Shown in pieces: positions 17,708 through 51,919 of a stretch of DNA of 58,728 nt. Below the pieces are notes generated by a model. That model was not told the origin of the DNA and made no database searches. It was given only the letters and a program-made list of their open reading frames with translations. The stretch spans positions 1-58,728 of the forward strand of contig JAZQOE010000069.1 of NCBI GenBank assembly GCA_045627705.1, read 5' to 3'. Position numbers and translations under genes: made by a program. Source of the DNA: Kiritimatiellia bacterium. Lineage in GTDB: Bacteria > Verrucomicrobiota > Kiritimatiellia > RFP12 > JBMNHG01. The first letter of the stretch is position 1. Each line of letters starts with the position of its first letter.

Positions 17708-17757
17708 ATTGAAACAACTTCCACTAATTCCAACCACCCAAAACGCGACAAACCACC

Positions 17758-18930
17758 ATGAGCGAAAATCCATCCCGTCTTTCTTCCGAAGTCCGCGCGA
17801 AGTTCCTTGAAACATTCGGACGCGCCCCGGATGTCGTCGCGTACGCCCCCGGACGCATCGAAGTACTCGGCAACCATACCGACTACAACGAGGGATTCGT
17901 CCTTTCCGCCGCGATCGACTGCGGAATCTGCTTTGCTGCCGCCAAACGCGCCGACCGCACCGCGCATATCGTCTCCGGCAACATGAATTCAGAATCGACA
18001 TTCCCAGTCGATATCGTCGAGCCTTCGAATGCCGAGCCGTGGACGAACTACTGCCGCGGCGTGCTCGTGGGGCTTTCCGCGCTGAAGAAACCCGGATTCG
18101 GCTTTGACGCGCTTGTGCTTGGCGACATCCCGCCCGGAAGCGGACTTTCAAGTTCCGCCGCGCTCGAAGTGAGCACTGGGCTTGCGCTCGCGAAGCTCTA
18201 CGGGATCGAAGTTGACCGTCTGACGATGGCGAAAATCGGCCAGACTGCCGAACACGAATACGCGGGCGTAAAATGCGGTCTGCTCGACCAGGTTTCGAGT
18301 CTCTTTGGAGAAGAGGGCAAACTTGTCTCCACCGACTTCCGTTCCCTCGACGTCCGCACGATGCCGCTTGGCGCCGACGCTTGCTTCCTGATGTGCAACA
18401 CGCTCGCGAAGCATGCGCTCGTCGATGGCGAATACAATAAGCGGCGCGCCGCTTGCGAAGAGGCGTCCGCGACATTCGCGAAGATTCTCCCCCACCCTGT
18501 CACAGCGCTTCGAGACGTATCGTGGGAAGAGTGGAAGGCGCATTCCGCAGAACTGGCGCCAATGGCGGCGCGCCGTTCCGCGCATCCAATCGGCGAAGAC
18601 ACCAGGGTGATCGAAGGCTGCAAGATGCTCGAGGCGGGTGACCTTGAAGGATTCGGACGCCTCATGTTCGAGTCGCACGATTCCTCGCGCGACTATTTCG
18701 AGAACTCATGCCGCGAGCTTGATGTCGTGGTCGATGCCGCACGCAAGACCGCCGGCGTACTTGGCGCGCGCCTTTCCGGCGGCGGTTTCGGCGGTAGCGC
18801 GGTAGTGCTTGTCAAGCCAGCGTTCGCAGAATCCGCGATGGCGGAAATCGCAGCCGCCTTCCGCCAGGCACTCGGACGCGATTGCGAAATCCGCGCGATC
18901 AAGCCCGGCCCCGGCGCATGCCTGGCATGA
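17758..18930 (+). CDS. galK: Galactokinase
   Basis: APGRIEVLGNHTDYNEGFVL (galactokinase signature) and GDIPPGSGLSSSAALEV (GHMP kinase ATP motif). 390 aa. Confidence 0.9.
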   Translation: MSENPSRLSSEVRAKFLETFGRAPDVVAYAPGRIEVLGNHTDYNEGFVLSAAIDCGICFAAAKRADRTAHIVSGNMNSESTFPVDIVEPSNAEPWTNYCRGVLVGLSALKKPGFGFDALVLGDIPPGSGLSSSAALEVSTGLALAKLYGIEVDRLTMAKIGQTAEHEYAGVKCGLLDQVSSLFGEEGKLVSTDFRSLDVRTMPLGADACFLMCNTLAKHALVDGEYNKRRAACEEASATFAKILPHPVTALRDVSWEEWKAHSAELAPMAARRSAHPIGEDTRVIEGCKMLEAGDLEGFGRLMFESHDSSRDYFENSCRELDVVVDAARKTAGVLGARLSGGGFGGSAVVLVKPAFAESAMAEIAAAFRQALGRDCEIRAIKPGPGACLA

Positions 18931-20252: not shown

Positions 20253-20341
20253 CGTACGTGGCGGAAGCGTCCGCGTCGATCCACCCGGTCATCTGTTATC
20301 TCAACATTTGTGGCGCAAGGGACACAAGCGACACAAGCGAC

Positions 20342-20548
20342 CTACGGACGCTGGTTCTTGAGCATGGATTCGGCTTCGTCGTTCAACTTGCACAGTTGGC
20401 CACCGCGCACTGGTTCCATGACCCATATCGGAAGATTGAGTTCGTTTAGCATGGTTACTTTGGCCTTGGCGTCCTGTAGCGTCCAGTCCAGCCAGGCAAG
20501 CATGCTGGACAGTGGAAAGGGTTGGAAAGGGACTATTTCGTATCGCAA
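20342..20548 (-). pseudogene. Possible relic fragment of an aldo/keto reductase gene
   Basis: The 68-codon ORF contains ...LPIWVMEPVRGGQLCKL..., resembling the (V/I)MEP(L/V)RGG block of Fe-S-type aldo/keto reductases. There is no room for the remaining ~300 aa between the convergent aminopeptidase and isomerase genes. The upstream ORF end overlaps the isomerase stop. Confidence 0.3.
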
Positions 20549-21312
20549 TACGAGCGGAAAAGCCCGATGGCATCGGCTAGTTCATTCATTGGATCATTCT
20601 TTGGAAGGAACTCCATGCCGAGGAAACCGCTGTAGCTGCCTTCGGGTATGGCGCGAAGGATTCCGCGATAATCGATGCCGTTGTCTTCGCCGGGGAATGT
20701 GCGGCCGTTAAGCGCGGCGATGTGGAAGTGCGAAATCATCGGAAGCTTCGCATCGAGATTGGCGAGCAGTTTATCGCCCGACACTTCCATGTGGTAGATG
20801 TCGTAGAGTACGGAGAAATCGGGGTCCGCAAGTTCGCGGGCGAGACGGAAGCCAAACTCTTCGCGATCGGCCTGGTAGTCCTTGTGGTCCTTGGCATTGA
20901 GCATTTCGAACTGGAGACGGACGCCGGAACCGCGTGCCTTGTCGAGCAGACGGGAGAACGCTTCGAGGCAGTTGTCGAAAGCCTCCTCGTCAGAAAGGCC
21001 ATCCTTGCGGCAGCCACTGAAGACAATCAAATTCTGCACGCCAGCATTCGCAAGCTGCTCGATCAATCGCATGTTGGCATCGAGGAGCGGATTGCGGTTC
21101 GCGCGGACGTTAAAGCCTTCCATCATGCCTTCGCCACAGGCATTGAGAAGCGCAAGTCCCGCATCCTTCGCAGCAGTCCAGCGTTCGGGCGCGACCATTT
21201 CAGCGGCGGTGTAGCCCATTTCCGCAAGTTGACCATAGTATTTCGCAGGATCGAATCCCTCGCGGAAGAAACACCAGTCGGGTGCGCTGAACTTGAGTTC
21301 GGAAGCCTTCAT
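20533..21312 (-). CDS. Sugar phosphate isomerase/epimerase (xylose isomerase-like TIM barrel; hydroxypyruvate-isomerase-like)
   Basis: 259 aa. GYTAAEM..., LIVFSG..., FEMLN..DHKDY and HFHIA are typical TIM-barrel isomerase blocks. AAGGAG lies upstream of ATG 21312. The gene is 30 nt downstream of era on the same strand. Confidence 0.8.
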   Translation of the reverse strand: MKASELKFSAPDWCFFREGFDPAKYYGQLAEMGYTAAEMVAPERWTAAKDAGLALLNACGEGMMEGFNVRANRNPLLDANMRLIEQLANAGVQNLIVFSGCRKDGLSDEEAFDNCLEAFSRLLDKARGSGVRLQFEMLNAKDHKDYQADREEFGFRLARELADPDFSVLYDIYHMEVSGDKLLANLDAKLPMISHFHIAALNGRTFPGEDNGIDYRGILRAIPEGSYSGFLGMEFLPKNDPMNELADAIGLFRSYCDTK

Positions 21313-21342
21313 CTCTGCCTACTCCTTATGGCTGCGCTGGAA

Positions 21343-22278
21343 TCAGCGTGGTTCGAGGTAGCCCATCTGGCGCATAAGCCAGAAATTCTTCGACCAATCC
21401 TTCTCCACCTTCACCCAAAGTTCGACTTCGGCATCGACGCCGAACATCTCCGAGATTTCAGGCTCGGAAGCGCGTCGGACGGCGCGTATTGTGCGGCCCT
21501 TGTATCCGAGGACGATCGGACGCTGTGATGGACGGTTCACGAAAATCGTGGCGCGGATGTGCCAGTGCGTCCCCTCCTCCGCTATGTTGTCAATGCGCAC
21601 GCCGATCTCGTGGGGCAGCTCGTCGCCAAGGCGCATGAAGAGTTTTTCGCGGATTACGTCGGAAATCGCCAGCGGACGCGGATAGTCTGTCGCGGTGTCG
21701 GACGGGAAATACGGTTCGCCCGGCTCCGCATGGGTGAAAATGAGATCGACGAGTTGCGGGACGTTGCTGTTCGATGCGGCGGCAACCTCGATCCACTCGA
21801 CATCGTCGCGGTGGTGGTCCTTCTCCTCCTGAATGGCTTTCCACGCGGCATGGTATTCGGCGACGTGCCTTGTAGTGCCGTGGTCGCACTTGTTCAACAC
21901 GATGATCACAGGTTGGTCGGCGAAAAGCGCGCGACGAAGCCATCCCTCGTCCTCAAGCTGCGGGGCATGCGATGCATCGACTACAACGGCGAGCACATTC
22001 ACGTTCGCCGACGCCTGGCGCGCCATGCGGTTCATCAGCGTACCGAGGCGGTTCTCGCTCTTGTGGAGACCGGGAGTATCGACGAGCACGATCTGTCCGC
22101 GCTTGTCGGTGAAGACGCCGCGCACAACGTTGCGCGTGGTCTGGACTACGGGCGACACAATGCTCACCTTCTCGCCGACGATTGTGTTGACGAGCGTCGA
22201 TTTGCCCGCGTTCGTACGCCCTACGACGCCCACTATCGCGTAGCGGCGTTCCTTCTTTGTTTCATTCGCTTCTGCCAT
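21343..22278 (-). CDS. era: GTPase Era
   Basis: G1 GRTNAGKST, G3 DTPG and G4 NKCD, plus a C-terminal KH domain (VLGYKGRTIRAV). The ATG at 22278 gives the family-typical N-terminus. The track ORF extends 35 codons further upstream. Confidence 0.9.
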   Translation of the reverse strand: MAEANETKKERRYAIVGVVGRTNAGKSTLVNTIVGEKVSIVSPVVQTTRNVVRGVFTDKRGQIVLVDTPGLHKSENRLGTLMNRMARQASANVNVLAVVVDASHAPQLEDEGWLRRALFADQPVIIVLNKCDHGTTRHVAEYHAAWKAIQEEKDHHRDDVEWIEVAAASNSNVPQLVDLIFTHAEPGEPYFPSDTATDYPRPLAISDVIREKLFMRLGDELPHEIGVRIDNIAEEGTHWHIRATIFVNRPSQRPIVLGYKGRTIRAVRRASEPEISEMFGVDAEVELWVKVEKDWSKNFWLMRQMGYLEPR

Positions 22279-22356
22279 GGGGCGAATGGTAATCCTTACG
22301 GAGGTCCGGCGGCAAGATGAATCTCCCAATGAACGCCCGGTTTCACGAGCGCGGCA

Positions 22357-22384
22357 TTGATTCCCAAGGGGGATGTGGTACAAT
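22357..22384 (+). promoter_or_regulatory. Candidate sigma-70 promoter of parE (TTGATT-N16-TGgTACAAT)
   Basis: -35 TTGATT at 22357-22362, 16-nt spacer, extended -10 TG at 22376-22377 and TACAAT at 22379-22384. The predicted TSS is about 22391, only 3-4 nt before ATG 22395. No Shine-Dalgarno is present. Confidence 0.45.
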
Positions 22385-22394
22385 ACCCCCCATC

Positions 22395-24251
22395 ATGGCA
22401 TCCGATACGAATCAACAAGATCTTGTCGCCGCCGCTTCCGATTATGGCGACAGCTCAATCCAGACACTTTCCGACGTTGCGCACATCCGCGCCAGGCTTG
22501 GCATGTACATCGGCCGCGCCGGCGATGGTTCCCAGTACGAAGACGGCATATACATCCTCCTGAAGGAGGTCATCGACAATGCGATCGACGAATTTATCAT
22601 GGGGCATGGCAAGCGCGTCGAAATCCGCCTGAACTTCAATTCCGGCGAGGTGACAGTGCGCGACTTCGGTCGCGGCATCCCGCTCGGCAAGGTCGTGGAC
22701 TGCGTCTCGAAGAAAAACACAGGCGGCAAGTTCGACGACAAGTCGTTCCAGTTCTCGGTCGGCATGAACGGCGTCGGCACGAAGGCCGTGAACGCACTTT
22801 CGTCCGAGTTCGAAGTGCGTTCCGTGCGCGATGGCGAATTCTCCGAGGCCTCATTCCGCGAGGGCGAACTTGTCTCGCAGAATCGCGACAAGCTTACGGC
22901 GAACGAGCGCAACGGCACCTTCGTGCGCTTCATCCCCGATCCGAATATCTTCAAGAACTACCAGTTCCGCGAAGAGCACGTGCTCCGCAGGATGCGCATG
23001 TACGCATATCTCAACGCGGGTCTCACGATCGACTTCAACGGTTCGAAGATCATCTCGGAAAACGGGCTGCTCGACCTCATACACGACGAGTCCGACCTCG
23101 AGAAGCTCTACACGCCGTTCCACTACCGCTCGAAGCAGCTCGAAGTGGTGTTCGTCCACACGAACCGCTTCAGCGAATCGTACTTCTCGTTTGTGAACGG
23201 CCAGTTCACGACCGATGGCGGCACGCACCTCACGGCCTTCAAGGAGGGCGTCCTCAAGGCCGTCAACGAATACTCGAAGAAGAAGTTCGATGGCGACGAC
23301 GTGCGCGACGGCATCGTCGGCGCGATTTCCGTGCGCGTGCAGAACCCCGTATTCGAGGCGCAGACGAAGAACAAGCTCGGCATGCCAGACCTCCGCAACG
23401 GCTGGGTGAACGAGGTCAAGCGCGTTGTCGAAGAGCAGTTCCACCGCGAACCGGGCGAGGCGGCCAAGCTGCTCGAGAAGATTGCATCGACAAGCGAGAT
23501 GCGCGCCGAGATCGGCAAGGTGAAGAAGCTCGCCCGCGAGCGCGCCCGCGCCGTGACCGTGCGAGTGCCGCAGCTGAGCGACTGCAAGCACCACCTGAAC
23601 ATGGCGAAGGATAGCGGCCATGACTCGATGATCTTCATCGTGGAGGGCTTGTCCGCCGCGGGCACGCTCAAGAACTCGCGAGACGCGAACAACCAGGCCG
23701 TCTTCACCCTGCGCGGCAAGCCGCTGAACGTGTGCGAACTGAAGCGCGATGCCCTTTACAAGAACGAGGAACTCTTCAACCTTATGAAGAGCCTCGACAT
23801 CGAGGAAGCGTTTGAACGCCTGCGCTACGAGAAGGTCGTGCTTGCGACGGATGCCGATGTCGATGGACTCCACATCCGCAACCTGATGATCACCTTCTTC
23901 ATGAAGTTCTTCGACCGCGTGATCAAGGAGGGGCACCTCTTCATCCTCGAGACGCCGTTGTTCCGCGTGAGGAACAAGAAGGAAAACTTCTACTGCTACA
24001 CCGAAGAAGAGCGCGTAAAGGCGATCGACAAGGTCGGCAAGGGCGGCGAGATCACACGGTTCAAGGGCCTCGGCGAAATCAACAAGGAAGAGTTCCGCGA
24101 TTTCATCGGCAAGGACATGCGCCTTACGCCAGTTGACGCATCACATGATGTATCGGTGCGCGACACACTCCAGTTCTACATGGGTTCGAACACCCGCGAG
24201 CGCCGCCAGTACATCATGGACAACCTCGTCGTCGGCGAGGAGTCGCTGTAG
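22395..24251 (+). CDS. parE: Type IIA topoisomerase B subunit (short, ParE-like)
   Basis: YGDSSIQTLSDVAHIRARLGMYIG..DGIYILLKEVIDNAIDE (GHKL ATPase N-box), Toprim EGLSAAG, and DADVDGLHIRNL. 618 aa, resembling Bacteroidetes-type ParE rather than long GyrB. Confidence 0.8.
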   Translation: MASDTNQQDLVAAASDYGDSSIQTLSDVAHIRARLGMYIGRAGDGSQYEDGIYILLKEVIDNAIDEFIMGHGKRVEIRLNFNSGEVTVRDFGRGIPLGKVVDCVSKKNTGGKFDDKSFQFSVGMNGVGTKAVNALSSEFEVRSVRDGEFSEASFREGELVSQNRDKLTANERNGTFVRFIPDPNIFKNYQFREEHVLRRMRMYAYLNAGLTIDFNGSKIISENGLLDLIHDESDLEKLYTPFHYRSKQLEVVFVHTNRFSESYFSFVNGQFTTDGGTHLTAFKEGVLKAVNEYSKKKFDGDDVRDGIVGAISVRVQNPVFEAQTKNKLGMPDLRNGWVNEVKRVVEEQFHREPGEAAKLLEKIASTSEMRAEIGKVKKLARERARAVTVRVPQLSDCKHHLNMAKDSGHDSMIFIVEGLSAAGTLKNSRDANNQAVFTLRGKPLNVCELKRDALYKNEELFNLMKSLDIEEAFERLRYEKVVLATDADVDGLHIRNLMITFFMKFFDRVIKEGHLFILETPLFRVRNKKENFYCYTEEERVKAIDKVGKGGEITRFKGLGEINKEEFRDFIGKDMRLTPVDASHDVSVRDTLQFYMGSNTRERRQYIMDNLVVGEESL

Positions 24252-24291
24252 CCATTCATCCCACGGTCCTTCAACAGGCAAGGGACGCTTC

Positions 24292-24326
24292 TTGCCAACT
24301 GGTAAGCAAAGTATTATTCTCTTACC
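24292..24326 (+). promoter_or_regulatory. Candidate promoter/operator of the vapBC-defence operon
   Basis: TTGCCA (24292-24297)-N17-TATTCT (24315-24320). The inverted repeat GGTAAG (24301-24306) / CTTACC (24321-24326) straddles the -10. AGGAG is 7 nt before ATG 24350. A separate hairpin GGCAAG-N8-CTTGCC (24277-24296) follows the parE stop. Confidence 0.3.
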
Positions 24327-24349
24327 CATCTTACAAATAGGAGAACGCA

Positions 24350-24679
24350 ATGTATTCAGTCGAAACTGCAAAAATGTCGTCCAAGGGGCAACTTGTAATC
24401 CCGGATGCATTGCGGAAGCGCTATGGATGGCAACCGGGTACGACCCTGCTGATGATTGGAACCGGTGATGCGATAGTGCTTCAGGCGCTTCAAACTCCGA
24501 GCGACGAGACGATCGACTCCGTATTGGCAGAATCGAAAGCCGCAGGCGATTCTGTGTCGCATCGCATCGCAAATGCGAAAGCGGCATTGTCAAAACTAGG
24601 GAAACTTGGCATAAGGCTGCCAAATGGCATTGAAAAGAGTGAATCGCGCCGTTCCATGCTTCTGGAGAAACATTCTTGA
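24350..24679 (+). CDS. vapB: AbrB/MazE/SpoVT-family antitoxin (VapB-like)
   Basis: N-terminal KMSSKGQLVIPDALRKRYGW is the SpoVT-AbrB swapped-hairpin motif. The protein is small (109 aa) and overlaps the downstream PIN gene by 4 nt. Confidence 0.75.
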   Translation: MYSVETAKMSSKGQLVIPDALRKRYGWQPGTTLLMIGTGDAIVLQALQTPSDETIDSVLAESKAAGDSVSHRIANAKAALSKLGKLGIRLPNGIEKSESRRSMLLEKHS

Positions 24680-25074
24680 AAGTAATGTTCGATATAAATG
24701 TCATTCTCGACATTCTGGCGAACAGGGAACCGTTCCTCGATGATTCCAGGTCGGCCTTCATGAGGGCGATAGAGAACGACGATGAACCATTTGTAGCCGT
24801 ACATGCATTGTCAACGCTGTATTATCTTCTTGGGAGCGCCACGACCCGCAAGCTTCGCGATGCAGCCATGGGATGGATATTCAATTCCTTCAAGATTGCA
24901 GGTGCGGGAGAAGTGGAGGCGAATGCCGCGCGCGCGATGAAGTTTCGAGATTTCGAAGACGCATTGGTCGCGGCATGCGCGGTATCGTCAAGTTGTGAAG
25001 TAATTGTCACACGCAATCTCAAGGACTTCAGGAATTCCCCGATCCGGGCAGTTCATCCCCGCGAGTTCCAATGA
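24676..25074 (+). CDS. vapC: PIN-domain toxin (VapC-like ribonuclease)
   Basis: MFDINVILD (first acidic residue), FEDALV and VTRNLKDF are typical PIN blocks. TTG 24676 overlaps the vapB stop. ATG 24685 is an alternative start. Confidence 0.8.
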   Translation: MKVMFDINVILDILANREPFLDDSRSAFMRAIENDDEPFVAVHALSTLYYLLGSATTRKLRDAAMGWIFNSFKIAGAGEVEANAARAMKFRDFEDALVAACAVSSSCEVIVTRNLKDFRNSPIRAVHPREFQ

Positions 25075-26690
25075 CGAAAATCGAAAATTCGCAAGCGCTT
25101 TTCATGGGTGAAGAACAAGGACATCCCGTTGCCAGTGCCATGGCCAGGAAGAACGAACCTGCCGCCATCGGCGCATACACCCTGGTGCTTGACGATGCGC
25201 CGGATGATGGACAGCCACGCTATCGCGAAACGCCGATCGCATTCGGCGCGGGTGCGCGGCCGATTGGGTTGTCATCATTGGACGAAAGGCGTGTGCCGGA
25301 AAGAATCCGTCAGATGCGGCGGCTCCACGATTACGCTGACGACTCCTACACTCAGCGGCACAAGAACTTCTTCCTGCAGGGCATCTTCATGGCGGACTAC
25401 GAAGACAATGCGCCATGGCATGGCAACTTGCATCGCTATTTCCCTGTTTATGACGATCTTTCAGTTTCACAGCTGCGTGGCTATTTCACATGGCGGACAC
25501 AGCTCCGGAAAGGGCGCTTCGAAGAGATTACCCCTTCGTTCGCCTATCTCTACATCTATGAAATCCTCAATGGCATCGGAACGAAATCCGTCGAGGAAGG
25601 CATCGGGCGACTTGTAGAGTTCGAGAAGCAATACATAGATGCCGGCTTCGGCGATGACATCATGCGGCGGAACCTGCGACAGTGGCGCCTGGAGTTCGCG
25701 GTGGTGAGTGGACTGCCGCCTGACAAACTGCGCGAATACGCGCATCCGCAGATCCTGAAGACAGATGCGGCGCTGTACACGTTGAAGAATCCACAGTCTG
25801 CCGATGACGCAGCAGTCTTCGACGCGATGTGCGCAATGGGAAATGCTAAACTGGCCACATCGCCAGTGGTCACGAAGAAAGGCGATGCAGGGATACATCT
25901 CTTCGCTGAGACATGGCGCGTGGCCCTTGCAAAATGCCTCATAGACGGGAAAAATCTCTTCGCAGCCTGTTTCGGCACACGCTGCTCCTGCCACTGGTAT
26001 CCGCTCGCAAACGCGGTTTACTGGCGTCGCTACCCGATGAGCCCAGTCGTCAGGGAACTCAACCCATGCCACCACTTCCTCATCAAGGACGGCGGGTGGT
26101 TCGAGCGGTGCTACCGCAAGATCAACTTCAACCGCGAACTGTTCGCGGGCTTCCTTCACGAGACAGACCGTCAACTTAGAAATTACTTTAGGCAAGTCGG
26201 CGGACCCATGCGCGAACGCAAGGAGGAATCATGGGCGTCCGAGTATGTGCATTCCGTGATACAGGCGGATCAAAAGGCCAGGATCGAGGCCGCGCGCCCA
26301 AAGGTATCGATCAGTTTCACGGAACTCGATAAGATCCGCGATGACGCCCTGCAAACACAGGATTGGCTGTTGACGGACGACGAGAAGGCGGATGCTCCAT
26401 GCGAAACGCCAGTGGCGGCTGTCGAGTCCCCATCGGGGCAAGCAGACGAAACATCCCCGCGGATTGCGTTGGACGATTTCCATGCCGCCGTGGTATGCGC
26501 GCTTTTGCGTGGCGAGTCCCCTGCCCCGTTGATCGCCGCTCACCACGCCATGCCGGAGATTATTGCCGATGCGTTAAACGAAGCATTTTTCGATGAAATC
26601 GGCGACACCGCTTTTTCCTGCGATGACGGTTCTCTCGCCATCATCGAAGATTATCGCGATGATGTCGCAAGGCTGATTGGAGAATTTTGA
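25071..26690 (+). CDS. sngA: TerB-N / TerB-C domain protein (Shango SngA-like)
   Basis: YFPVYDDLSVSQLRGYFTWRTQLRKGRFEEITPSFAYLYIYEILNG matches my memory of the TerB_N hallmark. The C-terminal MPEIIADALNEAFFDEIGDTAF..LAIIEDYRDDV resembles TerB_C. ATG 25071 overlaps the vapC stop (ATGA). Confidence 0.65.
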   Translation: MTKIENSQALFMGEEQGHPVASAMARKNEPAAIGAYTLVLDDAPDDGQPRYRETPIAFGAGARPIGLSSLDERRVPERIRQMRRLHDYADDSYTQRHKNFFLQGIFMADYEDNAPWHGNLHRYFPVYDDLSVSQLRGYFTWRTQLRKGRFEEITPSFAYLYIYEILNGIGTKSVEEGIGRLVEFEKQYIDAGFGDDIMRRNLRQWRLEFAVVSGLPPDKLREYAHPQILKTDAALYTLKNPQSADDAAVFDAMCAMGNAKLATSPVVTKKGDAGIHLFAETWRVALAKCLIDGKNLFAACFGTRCSCHWYPLANAVYWRRYPMSPVVRELNPCHHFLIKDGGWFERCYRKINFNRELFAGFLHETDRQLRNYFRQVGGPMRERKEESWASEYVHSVIQADQKARIEAARPKVSISFTELDKIRDDALQTQDWLLTDDEKADAPCETPVAAVESPSGQADETSPRIALDDFHAAVVCALLRGESPAPLIAAHHAMPEIIADALNEAFFDEIGDTAFSCDDGSLAIIEDYRDDVARLIGEF

Positions 26691-26691
26691 A

Positions 26692-28023
26692 ATGGATGAA
26701 CCAACAAGAAAAGTACCGCGTCGCATAGCGCAAACCGTGCTCAATTCGCTCAAGGGCGGCGTTGTACCGAGGATCGGCTTGCCGTATGTCACGGTCGGGC
26801 GCAAGAGCGAGATCCAAGCATTGCTGCACGATGTGGACATCATCTCGGAAGGCGGCGCGTCATTCAGGTTCATCGTCGGGCGCTATGGATCTGGCAAGAG
26901 CTTCCTTCTCCAGACAATCCGCAATCACGTAATGGATCGCGGTTTTATCGTTGCCGATGCGGATCTCTCGCCCGAACGCCGTCTCCAAGGCACACATGGA
27001 CAAGGCCTCGCGACATACCGGGAACTGATCGGGAATCTTTCGACCAGGACAAAACCCGAGGGCGGCGCGCTCACGCTTATCCTCGACCGCTGGATCGGAG
27101 CGGCGCAATCCGCCGCCGCGCAGGAATCGGGCCATGCTCCAGGCGATCCAGCGCTCACGCCGCTCGTTGACCGCAAGATCGCGGAAGTCACGGCGTCGGT
27201 CAGGGAACTCGTCCACGGCTTCGAATTCGCGAGGCTGCTTTCCGCCTACTACCATGCGTATGTCGGAGGCGATGACGAAACGAAGGCAAAGGTCGTCCGC
27301 TGGTTCCGCGGCGAGTATTCGCTGAAGCGCGAGGCGAAGGAAGAACTTGGCGTGAACATCATCATCACCGATGACGACTGGTACGACTATCTGAAGCTCT
27401 TCGCCGTTTTCTTCCGTCTCGCAGGCTACGCGGGAATGATGATCATGGTCGATGAGCTTGTGAACATCTACAAGATTCCGAACTCGATCACGCGCCAGTA
27501 CAACTACGAGAAGATGCTCACGATGTACAACGACACCCTTCAGGGCAAGGCGAAATACCTGGGCATCATCATGGGCGCGACACCGCAGGCGATCGAAGAC
27601 AAGCGTCGCGGAGTTTACAGCTACGAGGCGCTTCGCTCGCGACTGTCGGAAGGGAAGTTCTCGAAACCGGGCGCACGTGATTTGCTGGCGCCTGTCATCC
27701 GGCTGGAACCACTTGTCGCCGAAGAAATGCTGGTCCTCTGCGAAAAGCTTGCGGCGATGCATGCGGACCTTTACGGGTATCCGTGCCGTATCGCCACCGA
27801 CGATCTTGCCGCGTTCATAAGAATCGAGTACGAGCGTATCGGCGCCGACGCCAACATCACGCCGCGCGAGGTGATCCGCGACTTCATTGAACTTCTCGAC
27901 CTGCTGTATCAGAATCCGGCAATGACGCCACAGGCGCTTCTCGAATCTGACGCCTTCACATACGCGAAATCCGAGGCCGTCTCCGACAATGCAGAGCAGT
28001 CCTTCGTCGAGTTCGAGCTCTAG
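26692..28023 (+). CDS. sngB: DUF2791 / BrxD-like P-loop ATPase (Shango SngB-like)
   Basis: LKGGVVPRIGLPYVTVGRKSEIQALLHDVDIISEGGASFRFIVGRYGSGKSFLL is the DUF2791-type N-terminus with Walker A. Walker B is MMIMVDE. GGAG is 9 nt before ATG 26692, and 1 nt separates that ATG from the upstream stop (TGA ending at 26690). The track ORF starts at TTG 26677. Confidence 0.65.
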   Translation: MDEPTRKVPRRIAQTVLNSLKGGVVPRIGLPYVTVGRKSEIQALLHDVDIISEGGASFRFIVGRYGSGKSFLLQTIRNHVMDRGFIVADADLSPERRLQGTHGQGLATYRELIGNLSTRTKPEGGALTLILDRWIGAAQSAAAQESGHAPGDPALTPLVDRKIAEVTASVRELVHGFEFARLLSAYYHAYVGGDDETKAKVVRWFRGEYSLKREAKEELGVNIIITDDDWYDYLKLFAVFFRLAGYAGMMIMVDELVNIYKIPNSITRQYNYEKMLTMYNDTLQGKAKYLGIIMGATPQAIEDKRRGVYSYEALRSRLSEGKFSKPGARDLLAPVIRLEPLVAEEMLVLCEKLAAMHADLYGYPCRIATDDLAAFIRIEYERIGADANITPREVIRDFIELLDLLYQNPAMTPQALLESDAFTYAKSEAVSDNAEQSFVEFEL

Positions 28024-28038
28024 CGGGAGCCAGCGGCA

Positions 28039-30273
28039 ATGGACATCTTCAGCCAATATGCGCCGTTCATCCAGGACTTCATCTACCGTTCCGGATGGAA
28101 AGCCCTGCGCGCCGTGCAGAACGCCGCGGGCGATGCAATCTTCAACACCGATTCAAATGTGCTTCTCACGGCATCGACCGCATCGGGAAAGACGGAAGCC
28201 GCATTCTTCCCCATACTGAGCATCCTCAATGAGCAGCCATCGGCATCTGTCGCCGTGTTGTACATTGCGCCGTTGAAGGCCCTGATCAACGACCAGTTCG
28301 GCCGGATCACGGAACTTTGCGAGGAGCAGAACATAGCGGTTACGCGCTGGCATGGCGACGCGCCGCAATCGCAGAAGCGCAAGCTTCTCCGCAATCCCGC
28401 CGGAATTCTCCAGATCACCCCGGAGTCGCTTGAGTCGCTGATGATAACCAAGCACATGGAGATCCCATCGCTCTTCCATGACTTGAAATTCATCGTGATC
28501 GACGAAATCCACTCGCTTCTGCGCGGCGACCGCGGCGGCCAGGTATTCTGCCTGATCGAGCGTCTCTGCCGCACGGCAGGCTGCAACCCGCGCCGCATCG
28601 GTCTCTCCGCCACGATCGGCAACCCGGCGGTGGCCGCGAAGTTCCTTGGAGCCGGAAGCAGACGCGAGACCCTAATCCCGAAATTCGACGGCGGAAAGGA
28701 AAAGTGGCGCCTGTCCATGGAGCATTTCTTCAACTCCGCGCCGCAAGCAGACGAAAACCGCGAAATAACCGTCGCAACGCCAGAACAGGAACCTGCCACA
28801 GACACAGCGCCAGAAGCCGCCGATCCCGGAATCGGCTACATCTTCGAACATACGCGGGGAAAGAAATGCCTCGTCTTCACAAACTCCCGCGAGGAATGCG
28901 AATCCGTATGCCAATGCCTGCGCCAATACTGCGAGGCGGCCCACGAGCCGGAACGCTTCCTGATCCATCACGGCAACCTTTCGACATCGTACCGCGAAAG
29001 CGCCGAAGAGGAGATGAAAGACGATGATTCGCTGATGAGCGTTTGCGCGACGGCGACCCTGGAACTCGGCATCGATATCGGGCGTCTCGAACGGGCGTTT
29101 CAGATCGACGCGCCCTTCACCGTTTCTGGATTCCTCCAGCGGATGGGCCGCACGGGCCGCCGGGGCGATCCATCCGAAATGTGGTTCGTAATGCGCGAGG
29201 AACATCCCGAGGCGCGCGCGATGATGCCCGAGATGATACCATGGCGCCTGATCCAGGGAATCGCTCTTGTCCAACTCTACATCGAAGAGCGTTTCGTGGA
29301 ACCGCCGCGCACGGATAGGCTCCCCTACTCCCTTCTCTATCACCAGACGATGTCCACGCTGGCGTCATGCGGCGAAATGACACCCGCCGAACTCGCCTCG
29401 CGCGTGCTGCCGCTCTCCGTATTCCACCGCATCACGGCAGATGACTTCCGCACTCTGCTTCGCCATTTGATCGAAACGGATCATGTGAACCGCACCGAAA
29501 ACGGCGGACTCATTGTCGGCATCGCCGGCGAACGAATCACCAATAGCTACAAGTTCTACGCCGTATTCCAGGAAAATATCGAATACACTGTCCGCGCCTC
29601 CTCCGAAGAACTTGGCACGATCTGCAGACCGCCGCCCGTTGGCGACAAAATTGCCATCGCCGGCCGCGTGTGGATTGTGGATGAAGTCGATCGCCAGCGC
29701 CACGAAGTCTATTGCACGCTGGTCAAAGGCAACATACCGGCATACTTCGGCGATTGCCCAGGCGACATCCACACGCGCATCCTCGAGCGTATGTACCGCG
29801 TACTAGCGGAAGACAAAGGCTATCCGTATCTCATGCCACATGCCGTCTGCCGTCTTGCCGCCGCCCGCGAGACATTCCAAAAAGCGGGTGTATGCGATCG
29901 CCCGTTGGTCAACCTTGGCGGCAAGATGTGGGCGCTGTTCCCGTGGCTTGGCACATATTCGTTCCTGGCGCTGGAGCGCTTCCTCAAGATCCGTTGCGCC
30001 AATAGGCTTGGCCTGAAAGGATTGAATCCAGCGCGGCCATACTACCTCCAGTTCACGATGCAGGTCGGCGAGGAAGAGTTTTACCAGATTGTCGCGGAAG
30101 AGGCCGCCAGGGATTTCGACCCATTGGAACTCGTCTATCCCGATGAAGTCCCGGTCTTCGAGAAGTATGATGAATTCGTTCCGCCAGAACTCGTCCGCAA
30201 AGGCTTCGCCCTCGGAGTACTCGACATCGAGGAAATGAAACAGCGGGTACTTGGACGCTTTGGGTGGAGATAG
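28039..30273 (+). CDS. sngC: DEAD/DEAH-box SF2 helicase, Lhr-like (Shango SngC-like)
   Basis: Motif I ASTASGKTEAAF, motif II VIDEIHSL, motif III LSATIGN and motif VI QRMGRTGRRG, plus a ~300-aa C-terminal extension as in Lhr-type helicases. The gene lies 15 nt downstream of the ATPase gene. Confidence 0.8.
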   Translation: MDIFSQYAPFIQDFIYRSGWKALRAVQNAAGDAIFNTDSNVLLTASTASGKTEAAFFPILSILNEQPSASVAVLYIAPLKALINDQFGRITELCEEQNIAVTRWHGDAPQSQKRKLLRNPAGILQITPESLESLMITKHMEIPSLFHDLKFIVIDEIHSLLRGDRGGQVFCLIERLCRTAGCNPRRIGLSATIGNPAVAAKFLGAGSRRETLIPKFDGGKEKWRLSMEHFFNSAPQADENREITVATPEQEPATDTAPEAADPGIGYIFEHTRGKKCLVFTNSREECESVCQCLRQYCEAAHEPERFLIHHGNLSTSYRESAEEEMKDDDSLMSVCATATLELGIDIGRLERAFQIDAPFTVSGFLQRMGRTGRRGDPSEMWFVMREEHPEARAMMPEMIPWRLIQGIALVQLYIEERFVEPPRTDRLPYSLLYHQTMSTLASCGEMTPAELASRVLPLSVFHRITADDFRTLLRHLIETDHVNRTENGGLIVGIAGERITNSYKFYAVFQENIEYTVRASSEELGTICRPPPVGDKIAIAGRVWIVDEVDRQRHEVYCTLVKGNIPAYFGDCPGDIHTRILERMYRVLAEDKGYPYLMPHAVCRLAAARETFQKAGVCDRPLVNLGGKMWALFPWLGTYSFLALERFLKIRCANRLGLKGLNPARPYYLQFTMQVGEEEFYQIVAEEAARDFDPLELVYPDEVPVFEKYDEFVPPELVRKGFALGVLDIEEMKQRVLGRFGWR

Positions 30274-30391
30274 CAGCGAACAAATAACATGTTACTTTTC
30301 CCCTCTAAAACAGTATAATAACCACATTCTTGTACGCATCTTGGAATGCGACAGTTCCACCCTTTTTCACCACAATTAATCAGGAAAACGA

Positions 30392-33300
30392 ATGAAGAAA
30401 TCTTCACCCGTGGTTATCGCCTCGTCACTCCTTGTAGTCCTCCTTGCGATCAATGCCATACTGCTTGCGACACGCAAGCCGACAACAACCCATGACGGTG
30501 TTTCGGGCAACGCAACAACGCCGTCAGTGGAGACGAACGCAGCAGCCAACGCATCAGCGCCAGCAGGCACTCCTTCTCCAATAACGACTCAACCCTTCAC
30601 TGTCGAAGGCACGGCGGTTGACAGACAGGACAACTCCATCGAAATCACCTTTTCGGGTATTTCCGGAGACATAGTCACTCCCGAAGGTTATCCCGGCATC
30701 TCCGTTTCGCCCACGGTTGCTGGCAAGATCGAACTAAAACAGTGGACTAAATACAATGGCAGGAGGGTGCTCAACATCGAGGGCGCCTTTCAACCAGAGG
30801 TCACGTACAGCGTGCGAATCCCCGCAGGGCTTACCGATTCCGCGAGCAACAAGCTCAGTCGCGCGGTGGCACTCTCGGTGCGCATTCCACCCAAGCCCAC
30901 GGAGATCGATTTCCATCTTTCCGGCCTCTACATGCAAAGCAAGGGTGCCAGGAAAATCCCCATTCGACTCACCAATGCGTCGAGGGTCGAGTTCACGCTT
31001 CAAAAGCACTATGACAACAATCTGAATGTCTCATTCCACCCCTGGTACTGTTACGGCGAGAACTCCCACTGGGATTCCGAGATGCTTGTCGATGTCGCAA
31101 GCATGCAAAAGACATTCAACATCCCGCGCAACAAGCAAGTCGATGCAACAATCGACCTGCGGGAACTCTTCGGCGACATCCCATGCGGCATATACAGACT
31201 TCTCGCCAAGCCAAAGGGTGCCGACAACCACTGGTATTCCGCAAGCACATGGTTCGCGATTTCCGATATTGCGGTCCAAGCCGTCATCGATGCAAACGGG
31301 CGCAAGGCTTCAGTCTTTGCGCGCACGATTTCCGATGACACTCCTGTGGCCAATGCCGATGTCCGCATTTTCAGCACCAAGAACCAAGTCATCGCAGAAG
31401 GCAGGACAGACGCCAATGGCTGCGCCATGCTCAGGTTCATGCCGAAGTACAACCTTTCCGTCGATGAGCCGAAGAGCGTAATTGTCGCTACCGATACGGA
31501 CATGACCTTCGAAATGCTATCCGACGGATATCGGTCCGACAGCAACCTGCATCCAAAGCTTGCGAACGCGCGCACGTACGCCAACCACCCCGAAGCACTC
31601 ATGTTCGCGGAGCGCGGCATATACCGTCCAGGCGAAACGATCTTCGCCTCGACATTCGTCCGCAAGATCGAAGCCGGCGCCACGCGCGCCGTGTCAGGCT
31701 CGCCAATCGTGTTCGTCCTGTGCGATCCGATGGACAATGAAGTCGGGCGCGTGGCGGCGACTACCGATGCGCATGGCTTCGCCGAGGCGTCTTTCAAACT
31801 AGGCCAGGACGCAAAGACCGGCAGTTATTCGATAATTTGCCGTCCAGCCGACCAAGTCCAATGGGGAAGAACCAAAGTCCTTGTGAGCGCTTTCGTTCCG
31901 GACCGCATCAAGGCTGCGCTAAAATCCGACATAGCCCCTAGAACCGCGGTTTCCCCCGATGACGCCATCAAGTACACGACCTCGGCAAACTACTATTTCG
32001 GCACGCCTGTCGAAAGTTTCGACTTTGATTTTTCCGCCGTGTTGGAGCCGATGCCCACCCTTCCCGAGCACATGAAGGGCTGGAAGATTGGTGAAAGCGC
32101 CAACACCCGCCTTGAAATCGATAGGTCCACGGGCAAGGGATCGAACCAGATGGAAATCGAAATCGGCGGCCTGGACAGATTCGTCGGCAAAGCCTTTTCG
32201 CCGCAACTAATCAAGGCATGGAATGACGTATCTGAAATCGGCGGACGCGCCGTGACGGCATTTGGCCCGAGCATTCCATTTCACCCTACCCCGTCATACA
32301 TCGGGCTGCGCCATGTCGATGGCGGGCAAGGTGGCGACGTTGTCGAGCTTGCGCTAGTCCCGGCAATAGCGGGCGATGCCGTGAAACCGCTTCCCGTCAA
32401 CGTCGCGCTCGTGCGCAAGGAATGGGAGTTCGAGTTCTATGAGGACAGAAACAAGACACGCCGCCGCTGGGTCGAGAAATCAATCGACATCCCGACTTTC
32501 AACCGTGAGCTAACCGCTACTGGCGACATCGCGAAACTTTCGCTGAATGATCTGCCATTCGGCCGCTACGAACTTGTCGCGACAGCCCAGGACCGCAAGA
32601 ACAGGCTTGAGTTCTGGCATGATGCCGGCGAAGGAGGAATCCGTTCCGGCGACCCGAATGTCGTCGAGTTCAAGCTCGACGCCGAATCCTACAAGCCGGG
32701 CGATGTCGCCCGGATCACGTTCGAGTCGATTGGCGCCGGCGAAGCATTCATCGTCTGCGGCGAAAGCGCAATTGACGCCAACACATCCTTCAAGGTCAAG
32801 GCGGGGACAAACGCATTCGACTTCCAAGTCCCGCCATCGATCGTCGGCAATGCGTATCACTTCGGCGTGACAATCGTCTCCCGCGATATCAACAACATCC
32901 TGCAGCGTCAATTCGGCCTGCTGTCGCTCGCCATCGACCAATCGCGGTTCGGAATGTCGGTTGCCCTTGACGCGCCGGAAAAGACCGAACCCAAATCGGA
33001 AATCGAGGTCAAAGTCCATCTTCGCGATAGCAATGGGGCGCCCGTGTCCGGACTCGTCCGCCTCTACGCCGTCGATGAGGGCATACTCTCCCTTACGAAA
33101 TACGCGACTCCCGATCCCCTCGCCTTCTTCCATTGCGGGCGTTTTTGCGAGTTCAAGTTCTTCGACCTCTACGACGATATCATACCGGAACTGGCAATCA
33201 CTCCCGACCGGCAAATCGGCGGCGACGCATTCATCTCGGCGGCCAACCGTTCGAAGATTGACAACATGGAATCGGCCGTAGTCGTTTCAGCCCCAATCGA

Positions 33301-35344
33301 AGTCGGCGATACCGGCGATGCCGCCATCACGCTCAAGCTTCCCAACCACACGGGCGAACTCCGCATAATGGCAGTCGCCGCTGGCGAGAGGCTCCTAGGT
33401 TCTGCCCAACGCCCGCTCGTCATGCGGGATGTCGCAACCGCCACGGCTTCCGCGCCTCGAGCCGTCGCCCCCGATGACGAATTCGACGTTACATGCAAGC
33501 TCTTCAACCATGAGTGCGAAGACGGACGTTTCGCCTTCGCCCTTTCCCTTCCCGATGGTATCGCGCCCGCCTACGATGCCGCGAAACTTTCCTGGAGCGG
33601 CAATCTCCAGCGTGGCTCATCCTCGAACATCGTTGTGAGGATGCGCGCCGGCGATGCCTCCACCTTCCGCAATCTCTCCATCACCAATACGCTTGCGATC
33701 GACGGGCACTCGTTCCTCGGCGAGACATACGTGACAATCCGTCCTCTTAATCCGCCGATGACAGCCTCAAAGACAATCAGGATCAATCCATCCGAAGAGA
33801 TTGCCATCAACTCAAACCCCGACGACTGGCAGGGCGACACGGCTTCGACAATCGAAGTCCTTGCGCATCCCGCCACCGGCTTGCGCGATGCCGCCACATG
33901 GCTCAACGGCTATCCATACGGATGCCTCGAGCAAACCACATCGTCAGTATTCCCCCTCCTTGCAGCGGACAGTCTGGCCAAGGCCGGATTGATCGACCCG
34001 GAAATCGCGCAAACCGCAAAAGAAAAGATCGCCGCGGGAATCGTGCGCATCAAGTCGATGCAACTTGCCGATGGCAGTTTCGCGATGTGGCCAGGCGCCG
34101 ACTACAGCGCCGACGGCTACGTCGTCCTCTACGCTGCGCACTTCCTGATCGAAGCGCATCGCCATGGATTCTCGCCAAATGGCATTGACGGATCCGTGGC
34201 CAACTACATCAGGAAGACCTTCATCGACAGCACTGTCAACCATGCGGATTCCGGAAACAGCGATGTCGCCGACACTTTCCTCGCGGACTTCGAACAAGCA
34301 TACGCCGCATATCTGCTAGTCCTTGCGGGCAAGGGCGAAAACGTTGTCGCCACGCTTAGGAATCTCATGATCGGCGAAGGCGACAACCTGAGCTGCTACA
34401 AGGTTCTCGCCGCGACCGCCCTCGCAAAGGCGGGATACGCGGGAGAAGCCGCTGCCGTCCTTCGTACGCTCGTGAATTCCGATGACATGCCGATCAGCGA
34501 CTTGCCGCGTGGCTGCCATCTTTCGTACATGGATCAGACTTCCATCATGGGTCTCATCCTCAATGCGACAATGGAAGTGCTCCCCGACCCAGCGACCGCG
34601 ACCCGTCTTGCAGGCTACATCGCATCGCGCCAGCGTGCCGACGACTCGGCATGGGGAACGCCTCACGCAAACGCCTGGGCCATGCTCGGACTCGCCCGCT
34701 ACTGCGCCATCTGCAAGCCTGGCGATGTTGACTTCGCAATCAAGGCGAATGGGCGGGAATCACAGCGCATAACCCTGCCTGCGACTGGCGACAAGCATTC
34801 CTTCGCCGCGCAACTCGGCAATGGAGGCACCGTTCTCCATAACTACGGACAGGCGCCGATTTTCGCCGTGCTGCGCACGCGCGGCATTCCGCGCAATCCT
34901 CCTGCGACTGGCGGCAACGTTAAGATAAAGCGCGAAATATTCGACGAAGGCGGCAAACTTGTCAGCGGGACAGTCGCGCACGGCGATCTGCTCGAGGTCC
35001 GCATTTCAATCGAGAATGAAATGGAACTCGACGAGGCGATCCTCTGCGACATCCTGCCCGGTGGTTTGGAAATCGAAGACGAACGTCTCGCGACACGGGC
35101 GAACGCCATGACTCGTTCCGATAAGTCGAAGATGGACGGCATCCATGCCGCCTGCATCGAACGCGGCGACGACCGGTTCCTGCTCTTTGCGGATATCGAG
35201 CCTGGCAAGCACTCGGTATCATACCGCGTCCGCGCCGTCACTCCCGGCCGCTACACCACGGCGCCAGTCCGAATCGAGTGCATGTACAATCCCGATATCA
35301 CGGGTACATTCTACGATGGCATGGATATCGCTGTTGAACGATAA
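30392..35344 (+). CDS. Bacterial alpha-2-macroglobulin family protein (YfhM/ECAM-like) with thioester motif
   Basis: 1650 aa, the same size class as E. coli YfhM. N-terminal membrane anchor MKKSSPVVIASSLLVVLLAINAILLA. GYPYGCLEQTTSS is the thioester site. The body is a repetitive MG-domain-like beta-rich sequence. Confidence 0.85.
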   Translation: MKKSSPVVIASSLLVVLLAINAILLATRKPTTTHDGVSGNATTPSVETNAAANASAPAGTPSPITTQPFTVEGTAVDRQDNSIEITFSGISGDIVTPEGYPGISVSPTVAGKIELKQWTKYNGRRVLNIEGAFQPEVTYSVRIPAGLTDSASNKLSRAVALSVRIPPKPTEIDFHLSGLYMQSKGARKIPIRLTNASRVEFTLQKHYDNNLNVSFHPWYCYGENSHWDSEMLVDVASMQKTFNIPRNKQVDATIDLRELFGDIPCGIYRLLAKPKGADNHWYSASTWFAISDIAVQAVIDANGRKASVFARTISDDTPVANADVRIFSTKNQVIAEGRTDANGCAMLRFMPKYNLSVDEPKSVIVATDTDMTFEMLSDGYRSDSNLHPKLANARTYANHPEALMFAERGIYRPGETIFASTFVRKIEAGATRAVSGSPIVFVLCDPMDNEVGRVAATTDAHGFAEASFKLGQDAKTGSYSIICRPADQVQWGRTKVLVSAFVPDRIKAALKSDIAPRTAVSPDDAIKYTTSANYYFGTPVESFDFDFSAVLEPMPTLPEHMKGWKIGESANTRLEIDRSTGKGSNQMEIEIGGLDRFVGKAFSPQLIKAWNDVSEIGGRAVTAFGPSIPFHPTPSYIGLRHVDGGQGGDVVELALVPAIAGDAVKPLPVNVALVRKEWEFEFYEDRNKTRRRWVEKSIDIPTFNRELTATGDIAKLSLNDLPFGRYELVATAQDRKNRLEFWHDAGEGGIRSGDPNVVEFKLDAESYKPGDVARITFESIGAGEAFIVCGESAIDANTSFKVKAGTNAFDFQVPPSIVGNAYHFGVTIVSRDINNILQRQFGLLSLAIDQSRFGMSVALDAPEKTEPKSEIEVKVHLRDSNGAPVSGLVRLYAVDEGILSLTKYATPDPLAFFHCGRFCEFKFFDLYDDIIPELAITPDRQIGGDAFISAANRSKIDNMESAVVVSAPIEVGDTGDAAITLKLPNHTGELRIMAVAAGERLLGSAQRPLVMRDVATATASAPRAVAPDDEFDVTCKLFNHECEDGRFAFALSLPDGIAPAYDAAKLSWSGNLQRGSSSNIVVRMRAGDASTFRNLSITNTLAIDGHSFLGETYVTIRPLNPPMTASKTIRINPSEEIAINSNPDDWQGDTASTIEVLAHPATGLRDAATWLNGYPYGCLEQTTSSVFPLLAADSLAKAGLIDPEIAQTAKEKIAAGIVRIKSMQLADGSFAMWPGADYSADGYVVLYAAHFLIEAHRHGFSPNGIDGSVANYIRKTFIDSTVNHADSGNSDVADTFLADFEQAYAAYLLVLAGKGENVVATLRNLMIGEGDNLSCYKVLAATALAKAGYAGEAAAVLRTLVNSDDMPISDLPRGCHLSYMDQTSIMGLILNATMEVLPDPATATRLAGYIASRQRADDSAWGTPHANAWAMLGLARYCAICKPGDVDFAIKANGRESQRITLPATGDKHSFAAQLGNGGTVLHNYGQAPIFAVLRTRGIPRNPPATGGNVKIKREIFDEGGKLVSGTVAHGDLLEVRISIENEMELDEAILCDILPGGLEIEDERLATRANAMTRSDKSKMDGIHAACIERGDDRFLLFADIEPGKHSVSYRVRAVTPGRYTTAPVRIECMYNPDITGTFYDGMDIAVER
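33923..33934 (+). other. CLEQ thioester-forming motif codons of the alpha-2-macroglobulin
   Basis: tgc ctc gag caa, in frame with the ORF starting at 30392, within GYPYGCLEQTTS. Confidence 0.8.
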
Positions 35345-50277: not shown

Positions 50278-50324
50278 AATGCCAGTCGCAATGGACAACC
50301 TATAACCCTCCAGGAAACGCACTC

Positions 50325-51605
<1,281 letters not shown>

Positions 51606-51697: not shown

Positions 51698-51919
51698 ATG
51701 AATACGGCGGTACTTTGCGAACGTGGACAGGTCACGATCCCCAAGAAATTCAGGACACGGCTTGGGCTCCACCCAAGCATGGTCCTGACATTCCGCGTTT
51801 CAGGAGACGCCTTGATTGTTGAAAAACAAAAGAAGCGGAATCCGTTTGCAGAAGCGCGGGGTTGCCTTGAATCAAAGGCGCGCACAGACGATTTGGTCAA
51901 GGAAATGCGGGGTTGCTGA
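51698..51919 (+). CDS. vapB: AbrB/MazE/SpoVT-family antitoxin (VapB-like)
   Basis: MNTAVLCERGQVTIPKKFRTRLGL is the SpoVT-AbrB motif. 73 aa. The stop overlaps the vapC ATG (TGATG). Confidence 0.75.
   Translation: MNTAVLCERGQVTIPKKFRTRLGLHPSMVLTFRVSGDALIVEKQKKRNPFAEARGCLESKARTDDLVKEMRGC

Follow-up and report, generated by a model that had tools for sequence, protein, structure and literature searches.

Does a compact cluster of genes for a TerB-domain protein, a BrxD-like ATPase and a helicase, found in a Kiritimatiellia bacterium (Verrucomicrobiota; GenBank assembly GCA_045627705.1), encode a Shango anti-phage system, or does it belong to another kind of DNA-processing machinery? The cluster occupies positions 25071-30273 of contig JAZQOE010000069.1, of which we analysed a stretch of 58,728 nucleotides (58.7 kb), hereafter called the window. 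An initial annotation, made by reading the sequence, had proposed a Shango-type cassette. Our analyses indicate that the locus is almost certainly a Shango-family cassette, and that it very probably represents an intact chromosomal Shango (SngABC) anti-phage system, with an independent VapBC-type pair directly upstream.

Shango was reported by Millman et al. 2022 (10.1101/2022.05.11.491447) and Johnson et al. 2023 (PMC10250203), and it protects Escherichia coli (10.1101/2022.05.11.491447) and Pseudomonas aeruginosa PA14 (PMC10250203) against phage. The link between TerB domains and defence is traced to the work of Anantharaman, Iyer and Aravind 2012, cited in both Shango papers; the attribution of the system to these authors and to Millman et al. 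in the initial annotation agrees with these sources. According to a 2025 preprint, what TerB-domain proteins do in defence is still unclear (10.1101/2025.09.30.679545), and full-text literature searches up to 2026 yielded no paper on the mechanism or structure of Shango.

The three genes, here called sngA, sngB and sngC, are co-directional and tightly packed (Table 1). Direct reading of the sequence showed a single nucleotide between sngA and sngB ('...TTTTGA A ATGGAT...') and 15 nt between sngB and sngC ('...CTCTAG CGGGAGCCAGCGGCA ATGGAC...'). Gene boundaries and junctions are exactly those of the initial annotation, whose quoted peptide strings and motifs were all found again by alignment and translation. 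PADLOC searches returned SngA, SngB and SngC as top models in the canonical order, each match covering nearly the whole profile, and these models outscored those of the BrxD and BrxHI proteins of BREX systems by a wide margin. Across the three genes, the E-values of the hidden Markov model (HMM) matches range from 4e-16 to 5.5e-279, far beyond chance; a lack of significant matches, which the initial annotation had named as a reason to abandon its proposal, was not observed. Adjacent co-directional genes for an SngA-family protein, an SngB-family ATPase and an SngC-family helicase constitute the operational definition of Shango in PADLOC and DefenseFinder, and the locus is therefore assigned to this system. 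No NCBIfam equivalog was found above its cut-off for the three proteins, and Pfam and PADLOC scans detected no nuclease domain in any of them.

The match of SngB to its PADLOC model (PDLC03959) spans profile positions 4-438 of 439. In Pfam, the protein corresponds to BrxC_BrxD, the former DUF2791 (3e-165), and its Walker A (GRYGSGKS) and Walker B (MIMVDE) motifs are intact, which bears out the initial reading of this gene. By sequence, no relative was found in the PDB, and an exact look-up of the protein in the contig index returned no record.

SngC matches its own model (PDLC03960) over profile positions 5-715 of 720, and Pfam identifies DEAD (1.1e-29) and Helicase_C (1.8e-18) domains. All motifs of a superfamily 2 (SF2) helicase that had been read initially are present, namely motif I (S49-G50-K51-T52), motif II (D155-E156-I-H158), motif III (S190-A191-T192) and motif VI (Q367-R-x-G-x-T-G-R-R-G376), none of these positions varying among 34 homologues. 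The protein had been described as Lhr-like. For the RecA-like domains this description holds, as their closest solved structures are Lhr of Mycobacterium smegmatis (PDB 5v9x, the best match at 1e-30, and 7lhl) and MrfA/YprA. Past residue ~375, the profile-to-PDB alignment showed no sequence similarity to Lhr, and Pfam DEAD_assoc was not detected in SngC at E <= 0.01; it was the only domain missing among those suggested for verification, as TerB_N, TerB_C, DUF2791, DEAD and Helicase_C were all found. SngC does not have the composition of an Lhr helicase, that is, an SF2 core together with a winged-helix/domain-4 region and DEAD_assoc. By sequence, its C-terminal ~360 residues match BrxHI, not Lhr. 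An AlphaFold2 model computed from the 34 homologues, all ~82% identical, was poor, with a predicted local distance difference test score (pLDDT) of 50.2, and a Foldseek search with this low-confidence model, which retrieved MrfA/YprA and Lhr as top matches, confirms the SF2 core only. Both the C-terminal region and the genomic context thus set SngC apart from the Lhr and MrfA repair helicases: as judged from these comparisons, 'Lhr-like' is right for the motor, and the C-terminal half is BrxHI-like.

SngA aligns through residues 60-536 with positions 63-527 of the 528 in its PADLOC model (PDLC03958), and the TerB_N and TerB_C domains announced by the initial annotation correspond to Pfam matches at residues 72-289 (4.1e-23) and 398-532 (3.9e-16), respectively. 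Its start is ambiguous, as the first ATG (25071) is followed by in-frame ATG codons at 25104 and 25140, which would yield proteins of 528 and 516 residues, respectively; the gene call in the database, of 516 residues, corresponds to the latter. In the literature, SngA of Shango is described as carrying the TerB core domain PF05099, whereas no match to this domain was found at E <= 0.01 in SngA of the window or in three relatives of its clade. The missing core is a subtype difference and lies outside the HMM-based definition of Shango. No transmembrane helix was predicted in SngA, its maximum hydropathy over 19 residues being 1.33.

The AlphaFold2 model of SngA is confident, with a mean pLDDT of 84.4 and values below 50 for residues 1-43, 45-50, 52-68 and 443-460. 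No solved structure matches the TerB_N/TerB_C body by sequence, and Foldseek searches of the PDB and BFVD with the model gave no match at E < 0.8, with best E-values of ~1. Weak, partial matches to winged helix-turn-helix (wHTH) domains of the LysR type were the only ones to recur. In the model, the secondary structure elements of residues 469-536 follow the order H-H-H-E-E-H, so that the last 70 residues might be compatible with a winged helix, a weak inference. Since Trp, Tyr, Phe and Arg dominate among the invariant residues of SngA, acidic ones being scarce and His absent, the protein seems closer to a binding protein than to an enzyme.

Table 1. Features of the Shango locus and its surroundings (window coordinates).
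Feature	Position	Strand	Description
sngA	25071..26690	+	TerB_N + TerB_C protein, 539 aa; PADLOC SngA 6.6e-66
sngB	26692..28023	+	BrxD-like ORC/Cdc6-type AAA+ ATPase, 443 aa; PADLOC SngB 4.8e-185
sngC	28039..30273	+	SF2 helicase, 744 aa, Lhr-like RecA core, BrxHI-like over its full length; PADLOC SngC 5.5e-279
vapB-like antitoxin gene	24350..24679	+	AbrB/MazE/SpoVT fold, 109 aa; adjacent module outside the conserved Shango core
vapC-like PIN toxin gene	24676..25074	+	132 aa; Pfam PIN_3 3.1e-18, PIN 2.1e-05
Intergenic region upstream of vapB	24252..24349	+	Candidate promoter for a vapBC-sngABC transcript
GyrB/ParE-type topoisomerase subunit gene	22317-24251		Flank upstream of vapBC
Alpha-2-macroglobulin gene	30392-35344		Flank downstream of sngC

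How does this locus compare with other Shango systems? Validated systems come from Proteobacteria, unlike that of the window, and we used the system of Klebsiella pneumoniae plasmid pF77_3 as the sole proteobacterial copy for comparison. The same three families are encoded there in the same order and with tight packing, and SngA has both TerB_N and TerB_C in the two systems. Scores of the Klebsiella SngB and SngC proteins against the family models (617.6 and 936 bits) equal those of the window proteins (613.8 and 925.9 bits), and both clades are therefore inside the family models. The Klebsiella SngA (769 residues) differs from that of the window by the presence of the TerB core (PF05099, 2e-07) and of a hydrophobic N-terminal stretch, as read by eye.

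Closer relatives were collected with an SngA profile: a scan of a single genome for each species yielded 80 loci, mostly in metagenome-assembled genomes (MAGs) from the rumen or gut, distributed across Firmicutes, Chloroflexi, Bacteroidales and Spirochaetes, with one planctomycete and one proteobacterium. This origin agrees with a 2026 survey in which Shango is among the systems identified by DefenseFinder in rumen genomes and MAGs (PMC13356809). All three genes are complete in 57 of the 80 loci, most others being cut by contig ends. SngB and SngC are 73-87% and 74-83% identical to the window proteins, respectively, as opposed to 36-46% for SngA. In keeping with this, the nearest proteins in a database of 5.8 billion sequences are 49% identical to SngA and 83% identical to SngC.

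This clade, found mainly in gut and rumen anaerobes and also including Clostridium estertheticum plasmid pCF002-344, has gene junctions like those of the window, and its SngA likewise joins TerB_N to TerB_C with no TerB core. Most of its SngA proteins (~600-625 residues) bear an additional N-terminal domain of ~95 residues, absent from the window SngA. These N-termini match PSPTO_3016 (PDB 2kfp/3h9x) at 1.4e-09. We take PSPTO_3016 to be a member of the YjbR/DUF419 'double-wing' DNA-binding family; no YjbR match was given by Pfam for the long-form N-termini, and the link is made by the 2kfp profile match. The short form found in the window also occurs in several other loci, including that of C. 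estertheticum (533 residues). In contrast with the window, none of the loci of this clade has vapBC genes upstream.

In two loci, sngB and sngC are not adjacent. In a Bacteroidales MAG (L021, 3783-6813), a complete type II restriction-modification unit on the same strand, composed of two N6_N4_Mtase genes and a gene for an EcoRI-family endonuclease (5.3e-151), splits an otherwise intact Shango operon. In a Blautia MAG (L056, 3040-5434), sngB and sngC are ~2.4 kb apart, separated by genes on the opposite strand, one of which codes for a UxuA-like protein (3.9e-29).

Among the 57 complete loci, SngA has a median pairwise identity of 0.47, as against 0.82 for SngB and also for SngC. Pairwise distances between loci are correlated among sngA, sngB and sngC (Spearman 0.53-0.62), and the genes therefore appear to travel mostly together. 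Recent horizontal transfer was considered as the origin of the 82% identity of SngB and SngC across phyla; the saturation of synonymous sites in sngA, sngB and sngC alike (proportion of synonymous differences, pS, ~0.72-0.76) led us to reject it. For the two least diverged pairs (synonymous divergence, dS, ~0.3 and ~0.6), the ratio of non-synonymous to synonymous substitution rates (dN/dS) is 0.15-0.20 for sngA and 0.03-0.06 for sngB and sngC, a 3- to 6-fold difference.

The family is also found on mobile elements, with SngB homologues on 688 PLSDB plasmids, most frequently from Klebsiella (449) and Salmonella (144), 541 of these plasmids being predicted to be conjugative. No SngB was found in the viral collections INPHARED and IMG/VR. 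Such a distribution would fit a role in competition between plasmids, and the main target of Shango might then be plasmids or other mobile DNA instead of phage, as the lack of copies in phage and viral collections would also allow. We nevertheless consider this unlikely, as the published phenotypes are anti-phage (PMC10250203; 10.1101/2022.05.11.491447); we found no published test of anti-plasmid activity of Shango, with either outcome.

We next consider the two genes directly upstream of sngA. The product of the first matches Pfam MazE_antitoxin (1e-05) and an NCBIfam AbrB-family domain (1.3e-06), and the second codes for a PIN-domain protein. The TTG start of vapC (24676) overlaps the vapB stop as TTGA, with an alternative ATG at 24685. 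A gene for an AbrB/MazE-fold protein located just upstream of, and overlapping, a PIN gene is the arrangement of a type II VapBC toxin-antitoxin system. The stop codon of vapC in turn overlaps the first ATG of sngA as ATGA, and the gaps from vapC to sngC are -4, +1 and +15 nt. GGAG-type Shine-Dalgarno motifs precede vapB (AGGAG), vapC, sngB and sngC, and none was found before any of the three candidate sngA starts. Given the ATGA overlap and the lack of such a motif, translation of sngA is plausibly coupled to that of vapC. The VapBC pair is probably co-transcribed with the Shango cassette. A sigma-70-like match (TTGCCA-17-TATTCT) at 24292-24320, upstream of vapB, is a candidate promoter only, and no terminator-like site was found on the + strand between vapB and sngC; the numbers of promoter and terminator matches are at or below those expected from shuffled sequences.

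These features, together with the apparent lack of nuclease domains in the three Sng proteins, raise the question of whether the five genes form one composite system, in which SngABC would sense infection and free the VapC PIN RNase from its VapB brake, making VapC the effector of an abortive infection response. The comparative data speak against such an assembly. Searches by tblastn for VapB and VapC homologues in the 80 related Shango loci found none. In 60 loci, the 112 open reading frames (ORFs) lying closest upstream of sngA share no recurrent Pfam family, the maximum being 3 of 112, and PIN and AbrB are absent from the families listed, down to those with two members. The GC content of vapB (0.509) and vapC (0.518) departs from that of sngABC (0.56-0.585) and of the other genes of the window (0.591 +/- 0.030). 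In addition, the window harbours a second pair on the + strand, likewise of low GC content, composed of a gene for a MazE/AbrB-type antitoxin (6e-08, 51698-51919) and a PIN toxin gene (3.5e-09, 51913-52353; GC 0.508), wedged between purD (50244-51605) and purE (52368-52874), a context unrelated to Shango. Its presence indicates that such pairs are likely elements scattered independently in this chromosome. We thus regard the composite system as quite improbable; from its distribution and composition, we read VapBC, like the second pair, as an independent toxin-antitoxin element, and not as a conserved Shango partner.

Is the cassette a defence system at all, or might it serve a housekeeping function? 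The initial annotation described a PVC-like (Planctomycetes-Verrucomicrobia-Chlamydiae) genome with the cassette between parE and an alpha-2-macroglobulin gene and no integrase. Both flanks were confirmed, and ParE shares 85% identity with Kiritimatiellia MAG proteins, in agreement with the proposed affiliation. The rest of the window codes for core metabolism and glycan-degrading enzymes, typical of Kiritimatiellia; it contains no integrase, transposase or tRNA gene, no Rfam RNA family and no other defence system. Location among core genes without mobility genes would suit a DNA-repair or replication-restart module composed of an Lhr-type helicase and an accessory ATPase, as would the closeness of the SngC RecA core to the repair helicases Lhr and MrfA/YprA. 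The best NCBIfam match of SngC is the ligase-associated DNA damage response DEXH helicase (Lhr-type), yet with 208 bits for a cut-off of 850, and the Sng HMMs beat all repair-helicase models by hundreds of bits.

Because a housekeeping module should be conserved at this position, as the initial annotation had noted, we compared the parE loci of 89 relatives (60-85% ParE identity), 9 of which were collected by protein look-ups and 80 by a metagenome scan. None of the 89 has sng or vapBC genes within 10 kb of parE, and therefore the cassette does not appear to be a housekeeping module. This function is also at odds with the patchy distribution of the family across phyla, its frequency on conjugative plasmids and the experimentally established anti-phage activity of other members (PMC10250203; 10.1101/2022.05.11.491447), and we consider it very improbable.

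None of the other neighbours of parE in the window is shared by the 89 loci either, and a metagenome scan for relatives based on the alpha-2-macroglobulin found nothing. In two related lineages (L001-L004 and L091), parC comes immediately after parE, whereas the window has vapBC-sngABC at this place and then the alpha-2-macroglobulin gene; the window ORFs scanned gave no match to a DNA_topoisoIV (ParC-type) domain. Several ORFs of the window have essentially no Pfam match, namely one of 1999 residues (5343-11342, - strand), two of 288 and 452 residues (16113-18475, - strand) and three small ones immediately upstream of parE (20310-22320, + strand), and no homologue of these was found in the 89 related parE loci.

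Another system related to the locus is type-2 BREX (Pgl), whose BrxD and BrxHI are a homologous pair of AAA+ ATPase and SF2 helicase with C-terminal DNA-binding domains. BrxHI consists of an SF2 core followed by wHTH, HAS beta-barrel and Lhr-CTD-like domains, and BrxD is an ORC/Cdc6 AAA+ ATPase tightly linked to BrxHI and proposed to be its loader or activator (PMC12839542). In a tree published in the Hachiman paper, SngC clusters with BrxHI, DruE and DpdJ (PMC12278908). BrxD and BrxHI are the PADLOC runners-up for SngB (1.9e-46; NCBIfam BREX_BrxD, 4.2e-46) and SngC (1.8e-121, profile positions 3-685 of 698), with near-full-length matches. That the locus is a remnant or satellite of type-2 BREX, in which BrxD and BrxHI were kept and the rest lost, is nonetheless hardly credible, as the Sng models reach 614 and 926 bits and the Brx models 157 and 405, the NCBIfam BrxD score (158 bits) is far under the cut-off of 350, no ORF of the 58.7-kb window carries the PglZ, PglX, BrxC or PglW domains that accompany BrxD and BrxHI in type-2 BREX, and a TerB_N/TerB_C gene accompanies sngB and sngC as a conserved third partner in every locus that includes the flank, as in the 57 complete loci.

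The identification of the locus as Shango therefore stands, and a number of observations have to be weighed against it or against its functional interpretation. Experiments on Shango were performed only outside the clade of the window, and identity to the Klebsiella proteins is limited to 39% for SngB and 30% for SngC, that of SngA being undetectable by BLASTP. Acquisition of the cassette as an island is not well delineated: synteny with relatives is too poor to set the boundaries of an insertion or to draw an empty site, and searches for flanking direct repeats or att sites gave only short ones at chance level, none of them bracketing 24252-30391. The cassette had been judged more AT-rich than parE (GC 0.586), which is clear for vapBC and weak for sngA (0.562); sngB (0.581) and sngC (0.585) equal parE and are host-like, and composition is only weak evidence of foreign origin. 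The domain assignment of the SngC C-terminal region comes from the BrxHI HMM match and the published analysis of BrxHI, the structural model being poor. The faster evolution of sngA remains net purifying (dN/dS < 0.5), so that weaker constraint could explain it as well as an arms race. Finally, the roles of sensor, loader and motor proposed below are deduced from homology and evolutionary rates.

How might such a system work? By homology with the BrxD-BrxHI dyad, SngB and SngC may form a slowly evolving motor, in which the ORC/Cdc6-like SngB would load the helicase SngC on DNA or switch it on. SngA may be a sensor or specificity adaptor that recognizes either the DNA or some other factor of the phage and brings SngBC into action. 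This proposal is motivated by its fast evolution, its lack of enzyme-like motifs and its appendages of DNA-binding type, namely the C-terminal winged-helix-like element and, in most relatives though not in the window copy, the YjbR-like N-terminus. As the three proteins appear to lack nuclease domains, restriction would be carried out either by the motor itself, using ATP to translocate on phage DNA or replication intermediates or to unwind them, or by host nucleases to which these would be handed over. We regard this specific sensor-loader-motor scheme as possible but tentative. In P. aeruginosa, a distant homologue reduced plating 10- to 100-fold and protected liquid cultures over wide phage doses (PMC10250203), which fits direct immunity better than abortive infection.

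More speculatively, the clade might represent a distinct, soluble Shango subtype, in which a fast-evolving SngA specificity subunit would read phage DNA or a protein of the phage and pass it to a near-invariant SngB-SngC loader-helicase motor, with an output perhaps wired to the coupled VapC RNase; we consider this doubtful as a whole. If true, a soluble clade devoid of TerB core and membrane helix would imply that 'membrane surveillance' is not the general mechanism of Shango.

The locus adds no new kind of defence system, and standard defence-finder models call it automatically. It extends the range of Shango to Kiritimatiellia, in a family that is widespread and yet for which solved structures match neither the TerB_N/TerB_C body of SngA nor SngB by sequence. 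Its main interest is at the level of the family, for which it provides three leads: the asymmetry of evolutionary rates between SngA and SngB/SngC, the soluble subtype without TerB core, and the apparent absence of nuclease domains, which points to helicase-driven or host-nuclease-dependent restriction.

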